Shown here one piece after another: positions 8,032-22,217 of a DNA stretch of 64,000 nt. Origin of the DNA: Anaerolineae bacterium. Its GTDB lineage: Bacteria > Chloroflexota > Anaerolineae > DRVO01. Both the position numbers and the translations under genes were made by a program. Where the stretch lies: the NCBI GenBank assembly GCA_050945695.1, contig JBMNTK010000001.1, forward strand, positions 7,729 through 71,728, in the 5' to 3' direction. Each line of letters starts with the position of its first letter. Positions within the stretch are counted from its first letter, which is position 1. The notes under the pieces were generated by a model, which made no database searches, was not told where the DNA came from, and saw nothing but the letters and a program-made list of their open reading frames with translations.

Positions 8032-9642
8032 TCACGCCGCCTCGGTCAGCGCCTCCAGGGTCAGCTGCAGGCGGCGTCGCACCTCGTCCGCGCCCAGGAT
8101 CTGGGTGACCTCATAGAGGGGCGGAGTGCGCTCGGCGCCGGTGAGGGCCAGGCGCAGGGTCATGAAGAGCTTGCCCGCCTTCACCCCCGCTCCCTCGGCC
8201 TGTTGGCGGATCTTGGCCTCCCACTGCTCATGGCCATCGGCGAAGTCGTACTGCTCCAGGTAGGTCCGGAGCATGGCAGCGGCCGCCTCGGCGCTGCCCA
8301 TCTGCTTGGCCAGGGCTTCCGGCGAGGGCGGCGCGTACAGGTCGGGCAGGAAGAAGGCATATTGGAGGACGAAATCGCCCAGCTTCTTGAACCGCTCCGG
8401 CTCCAGGGTGAGGACCCTGCGGGAGTAGTCGGGATCGCGGCGGAAGGCGGCAGCGAAGCGACTCACCTCCTCGGCGCTCAGCTCGTGGGCCACCCGGCCC
8501 TGCTTGGTCCCCTCCTCGATGACCACCCCCTCGCCCTGGGCCTCGATCCGGGCCAGGAGGGCGTCCAAGGCCTCGTAGAACTGGCCGGGGTCAAGCTCGC
8601 GCAGGTACTGGCCGTTGATGAAGTCCAGCAGGTCCCGGTCTGCCACCGGCCCTGCCTTGGAGAGCTGCTCGATCTGGAACAGCCTCACGTACTCCTCGTA
8701 GGGGTAGACGTCCTTTTCCTCGGGGTGGGCCCAGATGATGCGGGTGAGGAAGTTGCGGAACCCCTCGGGGAGGTAACCCTGGTTGCGATACCACTCGATG
8801 GAGGTATCGCCGGAACGCTTGGAGAGCTTGCGTCGGCTGGCATCCCGCAGCAGTGGAGTATGCACGATGCGTGGCATCTCCCAGCCGAAGTAGCGATACA
8901 GGAGCAGGTGCTTGGGGGTGGAGGAGATCCACTCCTCGCCGCGGATGGCAGTGGTTACCCGCATGAAGTGGTCGTCCACCACCACTGCCAGGTGGTAGGT
9001 GGGGAAGCCATCCGACTTGAGCAGCACCTGGTCGTCCACTTGGCGGGAGTCGAAGACGATCTCGCCGCGCAGAGGGTCCTGGAAGCGGAATTCGGCCTCA
9101 TCAGGCACGATCAGGCGTATCACGCACTGTTCTCCCGCCTCCGCCCGGCGGCGGGCCACCTCCGGGTCGAGGTTGCGGCAGTGGCGATCGTACATGGGCG
9201 TGCCACCCACGGCTTGTTGGGCCAGGCGCATGGCCTCCAGCCGCTCTGGGGTGCAGAAGCACCGGTAGGCGTACCCCTGCTCCAAGAGCCACTCCGCCGC
9301 CGCCTGATAGATGGGCAGACGCTCGCTCTGGACGTAGGGGCCGTAGGCCCCGCCCTTCTCTGGCCCCTCGTCGGGGGCAATGCCCAGCCACTCCAGGGCG
9401 GCCAGGATCTCGTGCACGGCTCGGTCATCGAGCCGCTTGCGGTCGGTATCTTCGATGCGCAGGATGAAACGGCCCCCGGTCTTGTCGGCCAGGGCTCGGT
9501 CCACCACCGCCTGCAGGGCGGTGCCGATGTGGGGCCGGCCGGTGGGGCTGGGCGCTACGCGGGTGACCTCGGCGCCGGGCGGCAGATCGCGCGGAGGGTA
9601 GAGGGACTCGTATTGGGCAAGGGATAGCGGACGATCCGACAA
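8032..9642 (-). CDS. gltX: Glutamate--tRNA ligase
   Basis: HIGH motif PTGRPHIGTA; KMSKS-like KLSKRSGD; 536 aa class I aaRS catalytic domain. Confidence 0.93.
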   Translation of the reverse strand: MSDRPLSLAQYESLYPPRDLPPGAEVTRVAPSPTGRPHIGTALQAVVDRALADKTGGRFILRIEDTDRKRLDDRAVHEILAALEWLGIAPDEGPEKGGAYGPYVQSERLPIYQAAAEWLLEQGYAYRCFCTPERLEAMRLAQQAVGGTPMYDRHCRNLDPEVARRRAEAGEQCVIRLIVPDEAEFRFQDPLRGEIVFDSRQVDDQVLLKSDGFPTYHLAVVVDDHFMRVTTAIRGEEWISSTPKHLLLYRYFGWEMPRIVHTPLLRDASRRKLSKRSGDTSIEWYRNQGYLPEGFRNFLTRIIWAHPEEKDVYPYEEYVRLFQIEQLSKAGPVADRDLLDFINGQYLRELDPGQFYEALDALLARIEAQGEGVVIEEGTKQGRVAHELSAEEVSRFAAAFRRDPDYSRRVLTLEPERFKKLGDFVLQYAFFLPDLYAPPSPEALAKQMGSAEAAAAMLRTYLEQYDFADGHEQWEAKIRQQAEGAGVKAGKLFMTLRLALTGAERTPPLYEVTQILGADEVRRRLQLTLEALTEAA

Positions 9643-9811
9643 GTGTACTACTCCCGATCTTCGTTGAGCGTGGGGCTATGGTAGCACGGGGAAGGGAGGG
9701 GCTCAAGGCAGCGGAGAGCGACGCTCTACTGGCCGCACTGGCCTTGCCGGGCGGCGGTCCGATGGCGTAGCCTGAGGGTAACCATGCGTCCCGGCCCCGA
9801 AAGGAGCACCC

Positions 9812-10951
9812 ATGAACCGTGCGCCCCGATACGCCATGAGTCCGAGAGAGCGCGTGCTTACCTCCCTAAGCTGGCGGGAGCCCGACCGGGTGCCCATCCA
9901 GATCTACCTTACCCCCGAGGTCGAGTCCATGCTCCGGGCTCACTTCGGCGCCCAGGAGGCCCCCGAGCCCCTCAGCCCGGCCGCCCGCATCTCCACCGCC
10001 ACCCGCCAGACCCACGGCGACGATGCCCTCCTGGTGCACCTGGGGGTGGACTTCCGCACCATCGAGCCCCGCTGGCAGGGGCCGGTGAAGCCGCCCCATG
10101 ATGGCATTACCTACGACATCTGGGGAGCGGGCTACCGCCGCGTCTTTCACGGTTCCGGCTATTACGACGAGGCGGTGGAGCTGCCGTTGGCGCAGCTTCG
10201 CACCCTCAAGGACGTGGAGAACTACCCCTGGCCTGACCCCGATGACTACGACTACTCCGTTCTGGCCGAGCAGTGTCGCCGCTACGATGACTACGCCATC
10301 ATCCTGGGGAGCGCCGGTTTGCCCGATATCCTCAACGGCGTCTCGCGGGGGCGGGGAATGGAGCGGGTGATGATGGACATCGCCCTGCGCGATCCAGTGG
10401 GGCTGGCCATCATTGATCGGCGGGTGGACTTCTGCTACCAGATGCTGCGCCGGGGACTGGAGGCGGCCGATGGCCGGGTGGATATCCTGCAGCTGGGCGA
10501 GGATACCGGCAACCAAAACGGGCGCATGTTCTCCCCCCGCGACTTCGCCGAGGTCTTCCGGCCCCGGCTGGAGCCCTTCTACCGGCTGGCCCATGAGTAC
10601 GGTGCCCGGGCCATGATGCACTCCTGCGGCGACACCCACGACATCATGCCCACCTTCATCGAGATGGGCCTGGACGTCCTGGATGCCATGCAGCCGGAGC
10701 CCAAGGGCATGGACCCAGAGACGATACGGGCCGCCTGCAAGGGGAAACTGGCCTTCTGCGGGCTCATCAGCACCCAGAAGACGCTGCCCTTTGGCACGGT
10801 GGCGGAGTGCCGAGCGGAGGCGCGCCACCGGCTGGACGTCATCGCCCGCGGGGGTGGCTACATCTTTGCCCCCGCCCACTGCATCCAGCCGGGCACACCG
10901 CTGGAGAATGTGCTGGCAGTCTACGAGGAGGCGCTGGGAAGGCCCCTCTAG
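9812..10951 (+). CDS. Uroporphyrinogen decarboxylase (URO-D) family protein
   Basis: 379 aa; RBS aaaggag 6 nt before the ATG; URO-D/MtaA-like TIM-barrel sequence. Confidence 0.65.
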   Translation: MNRAPRYAMSPRERVLTSLSWREPDRVPIQIYLTPEVESMLRAHFGAQEAPEPLSPAARISTATRQTHGDDALLVHLGVDFRTIEPRWQGPVKPPHDGITYDIWGAGYRRVFHGSGYYDEAVELPLAQLRTLKDVENYPWPDPDDYDYSVLAEQCRRYDDYAIILGSAGLPDILNGVSRGRGMERVMMDIALRDPVGLAIIDRRVDFCYQMLRRGLEAADGRVDILQLGEDTGNQNGRMFSPRDFAEVFRPRLEPFYRLAHEYGARAMMHSCGDTHDIMPTFIEMGLDVLDAMQPEPKGMDPETIRAACKGKLAFCGLISTQKTLPFGTVAECRAEARHRLDVIARGGGYIFAPAHCIQPGTPLENVLAVYEEALGRPL

Positions 10952-15569: not shown

Positions 15570-18446
15570 GTGGATGGGTTGACCGGCAAGGCTCAACGCG
15601 TGGGGGAAGGAAGACGACCGTTCTTGCCTGTACAGCAAGCACTAGCCCGCGGCTGGCTCCAGGCTGCCCTGGGCTTGGTGGTCGTCCTTTACCTCACTAC
15701 CTTTGTTACCCCTCAACTGCCTCGGCCTGACCTGAGCCTGTACCTGGTGCAGCCGTTACTGTGGCTGGCGCTAGGAGCGGTGGCTCTGGCGTCTGGCCCC
15801 GGTGACCTGACGCGGCCGGACCGCTGGATGGTGTCGGTGGCGGCGCTGGTGGGGCTGTTCCAGGTGGCGCTGTTTCTGGTGGCAGGGATGCTCTCCGGTT
15901 TTGGGCTGTCGCCCTATTCCCACGGTCTGCTGCCGGTAGCGCTCAACCTCGTGTTCGTCTTCTCGCGGCTCTTTGGGCTGGAGATGGCCCGCTGGCGTCT
16001 GGTCCGGCCGTTCATGCGCAGTTCCAGTGCTGGCGGGATGGTGCTGGTGTGGCTGGGCCTGGCCCTGGCTTCGGTCCCCCTGTCGGGGCTGAGCCAACTG
16101 GGCGACCCGGCCTCGGCTTTCCGCATCACCGGCCGGATGCTGCTTCCGGCAGCCTCGGAGAGCCTACTGGCTACCTATCTGGCTGTGGTGAGTGGCCCTG
16201 CCGCGGCGATTGCCTACCGCGGGGCGCTGGCAGGCTTCGAGTGGCTGTTCCCCCTGCTGCCCAACCCGATCTGGCCGATCACCGCCTTCCTGGGAACAGT
16301 CTCGCCCCTGCTGGGGCTGCTCGTGGTGCGAGACCTGGCCGAGTTCCGCAAGGCCAAGGACCTAAGCGACGCTCTAAACCGCATCAACGCCATCATCAAC
16401 TCCTCCCTGGACATTGACCGCATCATGCACCAGGTGGTGGCGGAGTCGGGCCGAGTGCTGGACGCGGACTACACGTGCGTGGTGGCGCGACGGCGTGGCT
16501 CTTGGCAGGTGCGCTACGCCCACGGCATGGCCCCCGTGGCCCCCTGGGCTGATTCCGGAGAGGATGAGCTATCGCTGCCCGACCGGCTGCGCTCCAGCAA
16601 GGATATCCTGGCGGTGGAGGATGTGCGCCGCAGCGAGTGGCGACGCCACCGAGCCCTGGAGCGAAGCGGGGTGCGCGCCTTTCTGGCCGTGCCCTTGGCC
16701 GTGCGGCGCGACGTGATTGGGGTCTTGGTCTTTAGCTCCTACTCCGGCCTAGCCTCCTTCTCCGTAGCGCAGTTGGACTTCGCCCGCAAGCTGTCAGCCT
16801 CCATCTCGCTTGCCCTAGCCAACGCCCGCCTCTATCAGAACGAGCGCCGCCAGCACCTCCTGCTGGACGCCGTGGTGCGCAATGCGCCCGCTGCCATTGC
16901 CGTGCTGGATGGGCGGAGCCTGCGGGTACGCTGGGCCAACCCAGCGGCCGTGAAGGTGCTCGACCCCCCCCTGCGTCAGGACAGCATCACCGGCATGCGG
17001 ATCGAGGATATCCTCCCTGGGGCAGTCGAGGCTGGCATCGTCCAGGCCGCCCGGGAGGTTCTGCGCCGGGGCACTCCTCTCTCCGCTGCCGAGCAGCCGT
17101 ACAGTGGCTTTGCCCGGGGCCAGACGTACTGGCGCTACACCCTCCTGCCCCTAAATGTGCCCGGGAAGGAGTCGCCGGACCTGCTGGTGGTGGCCTTGGA
17201 GGTCACGGAGCAGGTGCAGTCTAGGCAGCGTGTGGCGGAGGTGGCTGCCGAGGCGGAGGAGAAGCTTCAGCGAAGCCTGCGCGAACTGGAGCAGACCCAA
17301 CAGCAGCTCTTCCAGGCCCAGAAGCTGGAGACCGTGGGCCGCCTGGCGGGGGGTATCGCCCACGACTTCAACAACCTCCTGACCGCGATCATGGGCTATG
17401 CCCAGATCGTGCTCGCTTCCCTGCCGGAAGGACCCCTCCAGCAGGACGTGGAGGAAATCGTACAGGCCGCCAAGCGGGCCACGGGGCTCACGAACCGGCT
17501 CTTGGCCTTCTCCCGCCGCCAGGTCATCCGTCCCCAGGCCTTAGAGCTGGACCGTCAGATCGAGAGCATGCACGACCTTCTGGCTCGGCTCCTCGGCGAC
17601 GATGTGGAACTCGTCATGCGCCTGGGCACTGACGGCGGCATCGTCCAGGCCGACCCGAACCAGCTAGAGCAGGTGGTGGTGAACCTGGTCGTCAACGCCG
17701 GCGACGCCATGCCGGAGGGGGGCACCCTCACCCTGGAGACGAGCCCTGTCGTGCTGGAGGACTCCGCTCCTGCCGATGGCCTCGGGCCGGGCCGATACCT
17801 CGCCCTCTCCGTCAGCGATACCGGAACCGGCATGACGAACGAGGTGAAGGAGCACCTCTTCGAGCCCTTCTTCACCACTAAGCCCACGGGGCTGGGCACG
17901 GGCCTAGGGCTGGCCACCGTGTATGGGATCATCAAGCAGCACGGAGGCGGGGTCACCGTACAGAGTGAACTGGGTCGCGGGTCTACCTTCACCATCTATC
18001 TGCCCCAGGTCGAACCCGAGGTCACCGAGCCCGAGGCCGTTCCCGCGCCGGATGAGGAACGCCTCCCCCGCGGACGGGAAGTGGTGCTGGTGGCAGAGGA
18101 TGAGGAGACGGTGCGATCCATCGTGGTGCGCCTGCTCCACGCCCAGGGGTACCGGGTGCTGGAGGCCGAGGACGGTCAGGCTGGGCTGGAGCTAGCGCGG
18201 CGTCACCCAGGGCCCATTGACCTACTGCTGACCGACGTGATGATGCCGCGCATGGGCGGCCACGAGCTGGCCGAGCGCCTGCGACAGGAGCGCCCCGATA
18301 CCCGGGTGCTGTTCATGTCGGGCTACAACACTGAGGAGAATCTCCTGCGCTTGCCCGGATGTGACGGCCCAGTGGGGCTCTTACCCAAGCCGTTCACCCA
18401 CCGGGATTTGGCACGGAAGGTGCGGGAGATACTGGACTGCCAGTAG
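15570..18446 (+). CDS. Hybrid sensor histidine kinase (polytopic membrane domain, GAF, PAS, HisKA, HATPase_c, C-terminal receiver)
   Basis: 958 aa; ~8-10 N-terminal TM helices; H-box [17 protein letters not shown]; G-boxes DTGTGM and [13 protein letters not shown]; C-terminal [22 protein letters not shown]...LLLTDVMMP. Confidence 0.85.
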
Positions 18447-18662
18447 GGATGTCTTGGCGGCCCTAACCATTTTCTAATACATTCGGCTCCACTTTCATAT
18501 GGATTAGGACTAAGGTACTATCACTCGAGTCTAGGCAACGATGCCAGCGGATCATCCCGCGGGAGCGAGTGTCCGCAAGCGAGTGACACTCCGTATCGTT
18601 GGTGCGAGTGAGGCATGGCGGGGGGCAACGGGTGCCTTACAAGTACGGCAGGAGTGGAAGGG

Positions 18663-18851
18663 ATGACCGATCTTAACAAGCTGGTGTATAAGGCAAGTAA
18701 AGGAGAGCTGCGCGTCGACGAACTGACCGAAGACGCAACTGCTCTCGCCCAGTTCGAGCTTTCGACTGAGGAGAAGGTGGCGCTGCAGCGTCACGTTCAG
18801 AGCGGCCAGTGGACGAACTTCGTCCCCAAGGCCGCCAGCGGCTGGATATAG
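18663..18851 (+). CDS. Small hypothetical protein (62 aa) in an AT-richer intergenic island
   Basis: RBS ggagtggaagggATG; MTDLNKLVYKASKGELRVDELTEDATALAQFELSTEEKVALQRHVQSGQWTNFVPKAASGWI. No Cys; atypical lower GC3 codon usage versus neighbours. Confidence 0.4.
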   Translation: MTDLNKLVYKASKGELRVDELTEDATALAQFELSTEEKVALQRHVQSGQWTNFVPKAASGWI

Positions 18852-19289
18852 GTCTGAACCAGCCTTCGCCAAGGGTGGGTTCACCGAACCCAAACCGAAC
18901 CGCAATCCTCCCACCCTGGAGATGACCTAGACCATCCAGCAGGGAGAGTGCCGAGCCCGGGCAGCACCGGACCGGCCTCGCCAACGACGGTACTATAGCA
19001 ATGCACCCGGGCCCCGGGGTTTGGCTGCCCTTCGCCTTAGTAGCCGACCCCAGCGCGCTTGAGCGTAGAGGCCACCCCGCCATGCCAACCGAACGGGCTG
19101 CCCGATCCTAGAGGGGCAGCCCGTCCCCTGTCCCGAACGCGCCGGGAATGATGACAAACACAGGAAGTCAGCTACTGCTTGCTTCCTTTCCACTCAAGGT
19201 AGCGAGGAGCGGATAAGGCGCCGTTCCTCGCTACCCTGCTTACGCCTCCGCTCCCCTGAGTAACCCCGGGCTGCCAACTTATGTCAAAC

Positions 19290-19460
19290 CGAGCGCATTG
19301 GCCGTCGAATCAACTCGGGGCTGTTGGGCTTTTGGCTGGGCGTCTTGCCCTCAGAGGGCGGACGGGGTCGTCCGCCCCTACCGGCGTGTGGCGTGTCACG
19401 AGTCACGTATCACCTCTGTGTCTCCGTGTCTCTGTGGCTAGTCCCCGCCTGGAGGCGGAA
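19290..19460. repeat. GC-rich mosaic REP-like repeat (family B) copy, inverted orientation
   Basis: gggcggacggggtcgtccgccc hairpin plus gtcacgagtcacgtatcacctctgtgtctccgtgtctctgtgg, the reverse complement of the 14880-14940 module. Confidence 0.55.
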
Positions 19461-19464
19461 GCTC

Positions 19465-19899
19465 TTAGTTGTCCGAACGGCACTTCGGGCAGATGCCGGG
19501 GATGGTCGTCTGCCCCAGGTCGGCATCGAAGCCGTAGCGGTCGTGGAGGTAGCCACGCAACGATGCCAGCTCTGTCTCGTCTAGCCCGAACAGGCCACCG
19601 CAGCGCTGGCAGAGCAGATGGGGATGAGGATGCTCGGTGCCCAGGAACTCCCAGAGACGCTCTTTGCGGCCGGTCTCGATGCACTTGACGAAGTCAATCT
19701 CCGAGAGGACCTCGAGCGTGCGGTAGACGGTCACGAGGTCCAGGCCTGGATCGCTCCGTTGGGCCCGTTCGTGGAGGGCTTCGGCGGTGGTGGTGCGCCC
19801 GGGCAGCTCGTGGAGGGCGCGGAGGATGGCCTCCCTTTGGGGTGTGAGCCGGAAGCCGCGCGCCCTTAGCTCGTCACGGAACTTCTCGTAGCAGGACAC
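19465..19899 (-). CDS. Fur-family transcriptional regulator (Fur/Zur/Nur-like)
   Basis: FRLTPQREAILRAL winged helix; metal sites HPHPHLLCQRCGG and CPKC. GTG start 3 nt after the upstream gene stop. Confidence 0.85.
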   Translation of the reverse strand: MSCYEKFRDELRARGFRLTPQREAILRALHELPGRTTTAEALHERAQRSDPGLDLVTVYRTLEVLSEIDFVKCIETGRKERLWEFLGTEHPHPHLLCQRCGGLFGLDETELASLRGYLHDRYGFDADLGQTTIPGICPKCRSDN

Positions 19900-19902
19900 A
19901 AC

Positions 19903-20115
19903 CTACCCTGCACCCTCTAGGGAGGCGAGCGCTGCCTCCAGTTCGGCGTTGGCCTGTTCCATCGCCCGGGCGGCGGCGGTGATACGGTCGGCAGCGGCGG
20001 CATGGCCGATGGCGCGTACGCGCTCTGCCCAGCGACGGAACTCCTCCGCATGCTCAGCGTTGTGCTCCATCCAGTGGGGAAGGAGGACCTTCACCCGCTC
20101 CTGGTCATCTGCCAT
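19903..20115 (-). CDS. Small His-rich helical protein (hypothetical, putative metal-binding)
   Basis: 70 aa; LLPHWMEHNAEHAEEF motif; translationally coupled between the CooT-like and Fur-family genes. Confidence 0.45.
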   Translation of the reverse strand: MADDQERVKVLLPHWMEHNAEHAEEFRRWAERVRAIGHAAAADRITAAARAMEQANAELEAALASLEGAG

Positions 20116-20317
20116 CAGGCTGCTCCTCGCTCAGGGGGACGAGATTGACGGTATGCTTGAGGAAGTCCACGCTGACCACGCGGGCGCGCACTAACTGCGG
20201 TTCCTCGAAGAAGGTGGCCAGGCGCACGCCCTCCGGGACCTCTTCGAGCATTATGACGTCCTCGGCAATCAACTCTGATGAGCCGTTAGCCGCAAGGTAG
20301 ACTTTGGCCTGACACAT
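20105..20317 (-). CDS. CooT-family small Ni-binding protein homolog
   Basis: 70 aa starting MCQAKVYL... Matches the CooT pattern MC-AKV-L...DV..L...VR..T-F-E...V..L.EE as recalled from memory of the R. rubrum CooT sequence, not checked against a database. Confidence 0.55.
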   Translation of the reverse strand: MCQAKVYLAANGSSELIAEDVIMLEEVPEGVRLATFFEEPQLVRARVVSVDFLKHTVNLVPLSEEQPDGR

Positions 20318-20498
20318 GGACGCTCCCCTACTAGGCCGGACCTAAAGAACGCCGACACGGTTACCATACACTGCCGGCAGAGGCCCCGCAAGGCAGGGGT
20401 TGGTGTCACTGCCTCGGTGGCTGGCCTGCTCCAGGCCGGTGACAGGGAGATCCGCCCGGGGCTGTTATCGGCGGGGCGGGGCGGGTATAATCGGCGGC

Positions 20499-22217
20499 AT
20501 GACAGATCAGGGCTCCACCTGGATCGTAGCCTCGGCCCAGCGCCGGCTGCGGGAACTGCGCCGGCTGCGGGAGATCGTCGGGGTGCTGGGGCGCAATGGG
20601 CTAGACTTCGTAGTCGAGCAGCTGCGACTTCTCGACCTCGTTCCCCGGCGACTGATCCTGCGGGCTGCCCGCCCGCGGCCCGAGGTGGAGCGCATGACCA
20701 TCCCCGAGCGGGTAAGGCGGACACTCGAGGACCTGGGGCCCACCTACATCAAAATCGGGCAAATCCTGGCCGGGCGAGCGGATGTCTTGCCGCCGGACTA
20801 CTCGGACGAGCTGTCCCGCCTCTGGGACCAGGCACCGCCAGAGCCCCCGAGCACAGTGGTGCGCACCATCGAGGAGGAGCTGGGGGCGCCGCTCGGGCAG
20901 ATCTTCGCCGAGTTCGAGCTCGAGCCGGTGGCAGCAGCCAGCTTGGCCCAGGTGCACCGAGCCCGGCTGCCCGACGGCCAGGTGGTGGCTGTCAAGGTGC
21001 AGCGCCCCGGGGTCCAAGAGGTGGTCCAGGCTGACCTGGACATCCTGCGCGACCAGGCCACCTTCCTGGAGGGCCGCTTGGCGGTCGCCCGTGAGCGTCA
21101 CCTGTCCGAGCTGGTAGAGGAGATCTCCTACGCCCTCCGGAGCGAGCTCGACTTTGCCCTGGAGGGGCGCAACGCCGACCGCCTCCGTCAGAACCTGAGC
21201 CGACTCGGGTTTGCCCACATCCCGAAGGTCTACCACGAGCTCAGCACTCACCGGCTGCTCGTCAGCGAGTTCATCGAGGGCATTCCCCTGAGCGATCCCG
21301 AGGCCCTGCGGGCGGCGGGGTACGACCTGAGGGCCATCGCGGCTCTGGGTACCCGCATGTACATGCAGATGATCTTCGAGGACGGCTTCTACCATGCCGA
21401 TCCTCACCCCGGCAACGTCCTCATCAGCGGTGAGCGCATCGCTCTGGTGGACTTCGGCACCGTTGGGTACCTGACGCCGGAGATGCGCGAGAGCCTGGGG
21501 GCGATGCTCATGGCTTTCGTGGAGCAGGATCCCCAGCGCATGGCCACCGTGATGCTGCGCATGGGGGCCATGCAGGAGTATGGCCGGGTGGAGGCGCTGG
21601 TCCAGGCGCTGCGCCGGCTCCTGTTGCGCTTCCATGGCATAGAGCTGCGGGAGGTGTCCCTAGGCGAGCTCCTCACCGAGATCTTCGGCACCGCCCGCGA
21701 GTACCGGGTGCTGGTCCCAAGCGAACTGGCGCTGCTGGCCAAGACCCTGATCCTGCTGGAGGCAGTGGCCCGCCAGCTGCACCCGGGCTTCGAGCTGGTC
21801 TCGGAGGTTCAGCCCCACCTGGAACGCCTGGCCCGACAACGGTTTCATCCCACCACTCTGGCCCGAGAGGGGCTCGACTTCGCCGAGCAGGCCCGGCACC
21901 TGGTGCAGTCGCTGCCGCTGCGCAGCGACCTGCTCTTGGAGAGGGTGGAACGAGGCCGGCTGGTGTTCGGTGTAGACATCCAGCGCATGGAGCAGCTCAC
22001 GCGGCGCATCAACGACGTCGGAAACCGGCTTTCCTTTGCCATCGTGGTGGCAGCGCTGGTGCTGGGATCGTCGGTGTTGTTGGCAGCGGGGCCGGAAGCC
22101 GCGATCTGGCGCATACCGATCGTCAACGCTAGAGTACCCATTGGCGCCCTCACCTTCCTGGCAGCGGGCTTCTTTGGATTCTGGCTCCTCATCACCATGT
22201 TTCGCTCCCGCCGATGA
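20499..22217 (+). CDS. ABC1/UbiB-family atypical protein kinase with C-terminal TM helices
   Basis: LEDLGPTYIKIGQILAGRADVLP, AAASLAQVHRARLPDGQVVAVKVQRPG, FYHADPHPGNVL; TATAAT 14 nt upstream of the ATG. Confidence 0.85.
   Translation: MTDQGSTWIVASAQRRLRELRRLREIVGVLGRNGLDFVVEQLRLLDLVPRRLILRAARPRPEVERMTIPERVRRTLEDLGPTYIKIGQILAGRADVLPPDYSDELSRLWDQAPPEPPSTVVRTIEEELGAPLGQIFAEFELEPVAAASLAQVHRARLPDGQVVAVKVQRPGVQEVVQADLDILRDQATFLEGRLAVARERHLSELVEEISYALRSELDFALEGRNADRLRQNLSRLGFAHIPKVYHELSTHRLLVSEFIEGIPLSDPEALRAAGYDLRAIAALGTRMYMQMIFEDGFYHADPHPGNVLISGERIALVDFGTVGYLTPEMRESLGAMLMAFVEQDPQRMATVMLRMGAMQEYGRVEALVQALRRLLLRFHGIELREVSLGELLTEIFGTAREYRVLVPSELALLAKTLILLEAVARQLHPGFELVSEVQPHLERLARQRFHPTTLAREGLDFAEQARHLVQSLPLRSDLLLERVERGRLVFGVDIQRMEQLTRRINDVGNRLSFAIVVAALVLGSSVLLAAGPEAAIWRIPIVNARVPIGALTFLAAGFFGFWLLITMFRSRR

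Follow-up and report, generated by a model that had tools for sequence, protein, structure and literature searches.

Why should a CooT-type protein be encoded together with a Fur-family regulator rather than beside carbon monoxide dehydrogenase (CODH)? The question is raised by three tightly packed genes on the minus strand (20317–19465, in the order cooT, DUF8180, fur) of a 64,000-nucleotide (nt) stretch of contig JBMNTK010000001.1 (hereafter designated the window), which belongs to a metagenome-assembled genome of Anaerolineae (Chloroflexota; GC content, 67%). Few nickel chaperones are as poorly understood as CooT and CooJ, which have been studied almost entirely in connection with CODH. We consider it probable, on balance, that the triad is a self-contained nickel-handling operon, in which two nickel-chaperone-type proteins would be accompanied by a diverged, Nur-descended Fur regulator.

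The cooT-like gene (20105–20317, minus strand) encodes a 70-residue protein starting with MCQAKVYL, predicted to be a small all-beta protein containing Cys2 and His55. The second gene (19903–20115, minus strand) encodes a 70-residue protein of the DUF8180/CooJ type, a predicted two-helix hairpin with the motif H14-W15-x2-H18-x3-H22, and the third (19465–19899, minus strand) a 144-residue Fur-family regulator with a GTG start, Cys3, Cys73, H90/H92/H94, and two CxxC pairs. The first two genes overlap by 11 nt (20105–20115), and the GTG start of fur lies 3 nt past the stop of the DUF8180 gene; thus, the tight coupling described in a first-pass annotation of the window was confirmed in all coordinates. 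Shine-Dalgarno-like sequences precede cooT (GGGGAG, 20323–20328) and the DUF8180 gene (GAGGAG, 20123–20128). On public contigs that bear these genes, independent gene calling finds the same three and assigns their products to PF10133 (CooT), PF26551 (DUF8180), and PF01475 (FUR). Among the database clusters, the window CooT product has an identical entry, and the best matches to the window DUF8180 protein and Fur are 99% identical, the exact sequences of these two being not found there. The CooT-DUF8180-Fur triad is retained in five lineages (the window and the related loci L005, L091, L092, and L094), with Fur identities of 65–84%, and the non-coding flanks of these lineages showed no alignment beyond short motifs. 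Because the triad is kept as proteins in five lineages, the three genes are real rather than chance open reading frames (ORFs) of a 67% GC genome. The gene upstream of the triad encodes UbiB in four of the lineages and a thiamine pyrophosphate enzyme in one.

The first-pass annotation had taken the MCQAKVYL protein for CooT, and judged on its sequence, ligand residues, and predicted fold, it is indeed a true member of that family. In a hidden Markov model search, it matched Pfam PF10133 with an E value of 1.9e-15 (57.3 bits against a cut-off of 27) over profile positions 1–59 of 60. The blocks M1-C2-Q3-A4 and D51-F-L-K-H55 are invariant among 30 CooT homologs, and Cys2 and His55 line up with their counterparts in Carboxydothermus hydrogenoformans CooT (ChCooT), in which His55 reportedly has a role. 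The AlphaFold2 model (predicted local distance difference test score (pLDDT), 86.7) contains six beta-strands as assigned by DSSP, one long element being probably two merged strands, and the reference CooT fold (5N76, 6FAN) is small, seven-stranded, and all-beta. The seven top matches of the model in the Protein Data Bank (PDB) are all CooT (6FAN, 5N76, and 6Y8V, comprising crystal and nuclear magnetic resonance structures; E values, 2e-6 to 2e-3); the best is ChCooT (6FAN; E value, 2e-6; template modelling (TM) score, 0.77–0.88), and the first non-CooT match has an E value above 0.5. The window protein differs from ChCooT in overall sequence (22–23% identity), and its subfamily has invariant FFEEP and DFLKH blocks of its own as well as a fixed DUF8180 partner. 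In Rhodospirillum rubrum CooT (5N76), which shares Cys2 and the fold with the window protein, Cys2 is a Ni(II) ligand, and Ni(II) binding by way of this residue is common to the CooT proteins studied to date (PMC6006190).

The product of the second gene gave no match in the Pfam and NCBIfam scans, the Pfam release used presumably lacking the PF26551 model, which is precomputed on all 28 homologs of the protein and on the public-contig copies of the gene (best match, 99% identical). The protein had been described as His-rich, a label that does not suit it: it has only four His among 70 residues (14, 18, 22, and 38) and ends in ...ASLEGAG with no His past position 38. Its distinguishing feature is instead a three-His motif of a CooJ-type family, H14-W15-M-E-H18-N-A-E-H22, whose His residues lie on one helix of the AlphaFold2 model (pLDDT, 95), a two-helix hairpin consisting of helices 4–35 and 39–68. 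The surrounding LLPHW-EHN-EHA-EFRRWA block (H-W-x2-H-x3-H) is invariant in the 28 closest DUF8180 homologs, and the motif H(W/F)x2Hx3H occurs in 148 of 178 family representatives. The same motif is said to be strictly conserved in CooJ and to define its nickel site.

The relation to CooJ was traced by profile comparison. A 28-sequence DUF8180 profile searched against the PDB sequences found no CooJ match; with a 124-member profile, R. rubrum CooJ (RrCooJ; PDB 6HK5) ranked second, after a designed helical protein, with an E value of 0.0052 (20.2 bits) over the full length and with the motif in register. In this alignment, LLPHWIEHNEEH stands opposite YLAHFLDHVEGH of 6HK5, placing HW..H...H over HF..H...H, and the RrCooJ motif reads HFLDHVEGH. 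Comparison of the two by hhalign gave a probability of 73.6% and an E value of 2.9e-5. Moreover, the real CooJ fragment scored 19.7 bits against a maximum of 12.7 bits in 5000 composition-matched shuffles, none of which reached the real score. Because of the 6HK5 profile match, the hhalign result, the shuffle control, the helical hairpin, the motif, and the position of the gene after cooT, as in the R. rubrum cooFSCTJ operon, we read DUF8180 as most likely a CooJ-type nickel-binding domain, of which the window copy would be a tail-less member. It is consistent with this reading that DUF8180 proteins possess variable N- or C-terminal His-rich regions, like those reported for CooJ homologs in a preprint that also remarks on the difficulty of detecting CooJ from sequence (bioRxiv 10.64898/2026.03.10.710785).

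The DUF8180 family comprises 763 clusters at 50% identity (E value, 1e-3 or below), and 314 species-level genomes encode a relative. Among 178 sampled members, 96 are bare like the window copy, and about 45 carry C-terminal His tails; most of the 28 closest homologs also have a C-terminal His-rich tail (e.g., HHHHHPHSH), which is absent in the window copy; in this respect, that copy differs from RrCooJ. Four of the 178 (P0130, P0188, P0252, and P0256) are fusions of CooT with DUF8180, and a further fused ORF was found in locus L048 (7806–8225). These natural fusions imply that CooT and the DUF8180 protein interact physically. Another four members (P0190, P0208, P0225, and P0257; two from an automated count and two read by eye) combine an MCxxCGC N-terminus of the HypB type with a CPxCGG...CxxCG ribbon and a long His-rich linker, and look like a composite nickel-binding protein that is undescribed in the literature searched. 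We take their MCxxCGC to resemble the high-affinity nickel site of Escherichia coli HypB. With their MCxxCGC and His linkers or tails, such members are similar to the His-rich nickel proteins HypB (CxxCGC) and UreE and SlyD (His tails), whereas these add-on modules are absent from the window copy, which has no GTPase or enzymatic domain either.

The third product matched PF01475 with an E value of 2e-19 (70.3 bits; cut-off, 23.1) and has the winged-helix DNA-binding domain of the family, with TVYRTL present. The HPHPH and CxxC metal motifs noted for it earlier are present, with the precise reading being EHPHPH (H90, H92, and H94) and two CxxC pairs (C97/C100 and C137/C140), which in the family serve the structural zinc site. 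Its best NCBIfam matches are the Fur and PerR models. Against solved relatives, it scored 75 bits with Streptomyces coelicolor Nur (3EYY), 67.7 with Bacillus-type Fur, 59 with Campylobacter Fur, 55.5 with Mycobacterium tuberculosis Zur, and about 48–50 with PerR. The Fur proteins linked to the CooT-DUF8180 pair in other lineages reach 97–118 bits with Nur and at most 97 with any other reference, E. coli Fur and Bacillus subtilis PerR included. Nur has a nickel-specific site formed by His70, His72, and His126 and an M-site formed by His33, His86, His88, and His90 (PMC2691836). In the alignment of linked Furs (A5), H90/H92/H94 of the window Fur stand opposite H86/H88/H90 of Nur, and neither CxxC pair is lost. 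Moreover, the nearest homologs outside the clade, found in a search of 5.8 billion proteins, carry the HAH motif of Nur. By these comparisons, the Furs that accompany the pair in other lineages are clearly Nur-like, and the window Fur appears to be, marginally, a diverged member of a Nur-related clade. Unlike Nur, the window's Fur clade (22 clusters) has an invariant Cys3 (MSC...) and Cys or Ser at position 73. An N-terminal Cys (MSC... or MxHCH...) is found in 13 of the 14 linked Furs of A5, including those of other Chloroflexota, and is not found in S. coelicolor Nur; the Nur-like Furs of Thermoflexales (L023, L024, and L018) begin with M(T/P)HCH..., and most other pair-linked Furs with MSC.

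To place the pair in its genomic context, neighbours within 5 kb were identified by Pfam and NCBIfam in 80 related loci, of which 77 were usable at the species level for pairing. In 58 of the 77, the gene immediately preceding DUF8180 on the same strand is CooT, and in one more the two are fused; CooT occurs within a few kb in nine, and the remaining nine have no CooT, three of them being cut by contig ends. Fur is among the recurrent neighbours (12–13 loci) and is linked to the pair in 12 loci in four different gene arrangements, three of them in other Chloroflexota. In 11 loci, the pair stands inside or beside operons for energy-coupling factor (ECF) importers of the CbiM(N)QO/NikMNQO type, recognized by the components CbiM(N), CbiQ, and CbiO. 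In the Thermoflexales loci L023 and L024, the order is Fur>CbiMN>CbiQ>CooT>DUF8180>CbiO, with the pair within the importer operon, and in Syntrophales and Desulfobacterales (L080 and L036), DUF8180 follows CbiMNQO without CooT. The other recurrent neighbours are MinD-Fer4 pairs (16 loci), radical SAM proteins (12), a cation diffusion facilitator (CDF) efflux pump fused to a NifX-like domain (11), and a molybdoenzyme of the xanthine dehydrogenase type (8), followed by NifX-like genes (7) and Mrp (5).

CODH was not seen beside the pair in the genes scanned. In the window, the Pfam search of the 20 largest ORFs and the precomputed Pfam calls within about 10 kb on each side of the operon revealed no CODH, hydrogenase, urease, or nickel transporter, in accordance with the first-pass annotation as to CODH; the genes scanned encode histidine kinases, ATP-binding cassette exporters, UbiB, methyltransferases, and housekeeping enzymes instead. 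No CODH- or CooC-like family was found among the recurrent neighbours in the 80 loci or among 10 large neighbouring ORFs that were scanned (a chromate transporter, Lon, NrdD, a Mg-chelatase-like protein, and others, with no Prismane/CODH), about 40 large single-copy ORFs (480 residues or longer) remaining unscanned. The window operon differs from that of R. rubrum in having no cooC, cooS, or cooF in the scanned ORFs and flanking calls and a Fur-family protein, not CooA, as the regulator in the same operon. The assumption that CooT is normally encoded in CODH operons needs qualification: CooT homologs were already known to be widespread outside these operons, 26 of 111 being from proteomes without CODH (PMC6006190). 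The occurrence of the pair away from CODH, the triad in five lineages, and the recurrent linkage to Fur support the earlier proposal of a stand-alone metal chaperone-regulator module.

Two further sets of genes beside the pair were observed. The CDF transporter with a C-terminal NifX/NafY-like (Nitro_FeMo-Co) domain lies directly downstream of the pair in its 11 loci (e.g., L001 5246–6493 and L033 4479–5702), often followed by a radical SAM gene. In anaerobes, a set consisting of DUF364/DUF4213, Mrp/NUBPL, two NifX-like proteins, two MinD-ferredoxin fusion ATPases, a radical SAM protein, and two conserved ORFs that match no Pfam family (clusters of about 278 and 316 residues) accompanies the pair (L002 1–5743; L026, L029, L033, L039, L041, L051, L054, L069, and L079). 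This set may be an uncharacterised metallocofactor assembly system.

A candidate operator connects the linked Furs with the pair in relatives. Nur binds a box of tTGCaa-N5-ttGCAA at regulated promoters (PMC2691836). When spacings of 0 to 10 between TTGCAA half-sites were compared in the 80 loci, with first-order Markov shuffles as the control, TTGCAA-N4-TTGCAA (one mismatch at most) was found at 12 non-redundant sites against 2.0 ± 1.5 in the shuffled sequences (maximum, 5); each of the other spacings gave 0–5 sites, and the Nur spacing N5 gave none. Seven of the 12 precede a Fur/CooT/DUF8180 operon, at a distance of 30–50 nt from its first gene. The element, TTATTGCAA-N4-TTGCAATAA, is a palindrome of 18–20 bp, about six-fold enriched, found in other Chloroflexota, and possesses the Nur half-site in a 6-4-6 rather than a 6-5-6 arrangement. 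The sites are at 1058 and 1631 in L012, 872 and 2261 in L017, 115 in L027, 7736 in L040, 1037 in L053, 715 in L055, 7609 in L056, 7958 in L066, 7157 in L072, and 51 in L074. These results are good evidence that, in the operator-bearing relatives, the linked Nur-like protein controls the chaperone operon, and the regulon of a new clade of Nur-like proteins is probably marked out by the 6-4-6 palindrome. Collectively, the relatives' pair-linked Furs resemble Nur in sequence, in the half-site, and in standing beside NikM/CbiM-type importers, a target class of Nur.

The regulatory DNA of the window itself is of a different kind. A putative operon promoter at 20363–20391 (minus strand) consists of a -35 element, TTGCGG (20386–20391), a 17-nt spacer ending in TG, and a -10 element, TATGGT (20363–20368), and the promoter-like arrangement CCTTGCGG-N17-TGTAT(G/C)GT is common to the window, L005, and L091. 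A scan with the sigma-70 consensus called no promoter, this one being below the threshold; we infer from the sequence that it is the operon promoter. At the other end, a GC-rich hairpin, CCGCC-TCCA-GGCGG (19445–19458, minus strand), read from the sequence, starts 7 nt past the fur stop and has no U-tract. It is a possible terminator, and the terminator scan called no intrinsic terminator, this hairpin included. Farther on, the heptad direct repeats GTGATAC-GTGACTC-GTGACAC-G (19392–19413, minus strand) are followed by a second hairpin (19356–19377). The run of GTGAnnn heptads is headed by the 11-mer GTGATACGTGA, which has one exact copy in the 64 kb and, among 95 loci, is confined to the window's clade, with a single occurrence in each locus, always at most about 100 nt from the triad. 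It lies in the leader upstream of cooT in L005 (4719–4729), L091 (763–773), and L092 (5955–5965, opposite strand), and, in the window, on the downstream side of fur at a distance of 52 nt. The repeats are a candidate cis-element, with an operator and a relocated leader fragment as the possibilities.

Both hairpins and the repeats are situated in a 613-nt gene-free gap (18852–19464) between fur and a convergent, conserved 62-residue ORF (about 18663–18851, plus strand); the gap has no Rfam match, and none was found in the whole of 18400–20600. In L096, a 556-nt region (9445–10000) with no called gene and no CooT or DUF8180 ORF inside lies upstream of a stand-alone Fur ortholog of the Ser73 type. 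In the cooT-ubiB intergenic region, a perfect TATAAT (GGGTATAATCGGCGGCATG; within 20486–20498, plus strand), present also in L005 and L091, stands 7 nt before the ubiB ATG at 20499, which suggests a leaderless or very short-leader transcript for the divergent UbiB/ABC1-kinase gene.

From these features, the working of the operon may be pictured as follows. One promoter would drive cooT, the tail-less cooJ-type gene, and the Fur gene, all three being translationally coupled. A CooT dimer would hold one Ni(II) via its N-terminal Cys2, with His55, and the DUF8180 protein would form a four-helix-bundle dimer with Ni(II) at the H-W-x2-H-x3-H site on the dimer interface, corresponding to the structured high-affinity site of RrCooJ minus the low-affinity storage tail. 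Nickel scarce in the cytoplasm would be captured by the two proteins acting jointly and handed to client enzymes. The regulator, presumably descended from Nur-like nickel sensors, would in its metal-loaded form most likely repress the operon and nickel-uptake genes elsewhere, so that the chaperones would be made when nickel is low. Such expression would fit the R. rubrum cooT and cooJ mutants, which are rescued by added nickel (PMC6006190), and the position of the pair in importer operons.

Several observations weigh against this picture. The window Fur is only marginally closer to Nur than to Bacillus-type Fur (74–75 versus 66–68 bits), and the Nur nickel-site ligands are all replaced (H70 by K72, H72 by I74, and H126 by Q130), together with His33 of the M-site (R35) and the nearby ligand E101 (G105). 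The suggestion that the Fur is Nur-like thus stands as far as the best solved match and the linked relatives are concerned, and fails for the sensor residues of the window copy. The proposed search for a Fur or Nur box in the divergent promoter and elsewhere in the window was also fruitless: no inverted repeat was found in 20300–20540, covering the 181-nt cooT-ubiB intergenic region, no TTGCAA hexamer or Nur-like box at any spacing in the 64 kb, and no palindrome common to the five clade promoters. Autoregulation is therefore only conjectural for the window copy, and because the Nur nickel ligands, His33, and a Nur box are absent, we infer nickel sensing from the context rather than from the sensor residues. 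A 2.09-Mb Anaerolineae contig (L096) encodes a Ser73-type ortholog of the Fur as a stand-alone gene, neither CooT nor DUF8180 occurring within 10 kb of it, so that the linkage of Fur to the pair is frequent and not obligatory. There is no nickel enzyme in the scanned ORFs and flanking calls of the window, and importers of the CbiM type carry either Ni or Co. Finally, judged by sequence alone, the relation to CooJ is of borderline significance (similarity, about 27%; E value, 0.005), and fold searches cannot discriminate between helical hairpins.

In the principal alternative, the same architecture would serve another metal, with the module handling cobalt (or zinc or iron), the Fur sensing that metal, and CooT and the DUF8180 protein acting as generic His/Cys buffers for the cargo of CbiMNQO-type importers. 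The absence of the Nur nickel-specific site from the window Fur, its best matches to the Fur and PerR models, and the CDF-NifX fusions and Fe-S-type proteins among the neighbours all agree with such a module, as do the NCBIfam names of the linked importer components, which are all cobalt transporters (CbiM, CbiN, CbiQ, and CbiO), although NCBIfam could not separate NikM from CbiM. We nevertheless hold another metal to be unlikely, if a serious possibility: the CooT proteins studied bind Ni(II) via Cys2 (PMC6006190), some DUF8180 members have the HypB-type CxxCGC and His tails typical of nickel chaperones, no cobalamin riboswitch was found with Rfam at the importer loci, and the linked Furs of the relatives are Nur-like and associated with the Nur half-site. 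For the proposed nickel-handling operon, a more elaborate form is also conceivable, in which CooT and the CooJ-type protein would deliver metal to the Fur as well. In such a chaperone-gated metalloregulator, nickel would reach the Fur by ligand exchange from the co-translated chaperones, and the transcriptional set-point would read chaperone occupancy rather than free nickel. In the Chloroflexota Nur-like clade, the customary regulatory ligands (His33, Glu101, and the Nur nickel site) are lost, and the invariant N-terminal Cys gained instead (MSC... or, in Thermoflexales, MxHCH...) resembles the N-terminal Cys2 site of CooT; all the same, we regard this elaboration as rather improbable.

Alternatively, the pair could consist of ordinary maturation factors for a CODH or hydrogenase, encoded away from a client (cooS/acsA or a [NiFe]-hydrogenase) elsewhere in the genome, with the Fur being an unrelated, co-transcribed neighbour. 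CODH maturation is the established role of CooT and CooJ, CODH is present in 85 of the 111 CooT-containing proteomes (PMC6006190), CooC, CooT, and CooJ of Desulfobulbales are encoded away from CODH (PMC11247825), and our view is limited to 64 kb of the genome. Against maturation in trans, there is no cooC- or cooS-like gene among the recurrent neighbours or the scanned large ORFs described above; against an accidental neighbour, Fur occurs in four independent gene orders, with common operators before the operons. We therefore see little likelihood in this explanation. Less likely still, indeed very improbable, is that the pair feeds the metallocofactor assembly line of MinD-Fer4, NifX-like, Mrp, radical SAM, and DUF364 proteins, whose genes accompany it in many Anaerolineae and from which the window copy would be a separated remnant. 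The recurrence of MinD-Fer4 (16 loci), radical SAM (12), CDF-NifX (11), NifX-like (7), and Mrp (5) genes beside the pair is what recommends it; yet the window and the five triad lineages have none of these genes, the association is loose, with a gene order that varies, and the cluster itself is uncharacterised.

Collectively, the proposed nickel-handling operon is built of parts of known kinds, namely CooT, CooJ, and a Nur-like Fur, and what appears undescribed in the literature searched is the way in which they are equated and combined. DUF8180 is not mentioned there, nor does its equation with the CooJ domain appear to have been described. The same appears to apply to a CooT-CooJ cassette independent of CODH in Chloroflexota, including fused and tail-less forms, to the recurrent coupling of this cassette to Nur-like regulators and ECF importers, and to the 6-4-6 TTGCAA operator. 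Reading DUF8180 as a CooJ-type nickel-binding domain would give a domain of unknown function a role that can be tested, and the tail-less CooJ variants and natural CooT-CooJ fusions would be convenient minimal constructs for structural work on the hand-off of nickel. The linked Furs, with their remodelled metal sites and the 6-4-6 operator, would offer a natural system for studying the evolution of metal specificity in the Fur family. Most broadly, our analysis suggests that the CooT-CooJ-type pair is more than an accessory of CODH, namely a portable cassette for the handling of metal. Found with Ni/Co importers and Nur-like regulators rather than with CODH, it points to a general role in the supply of nickel.

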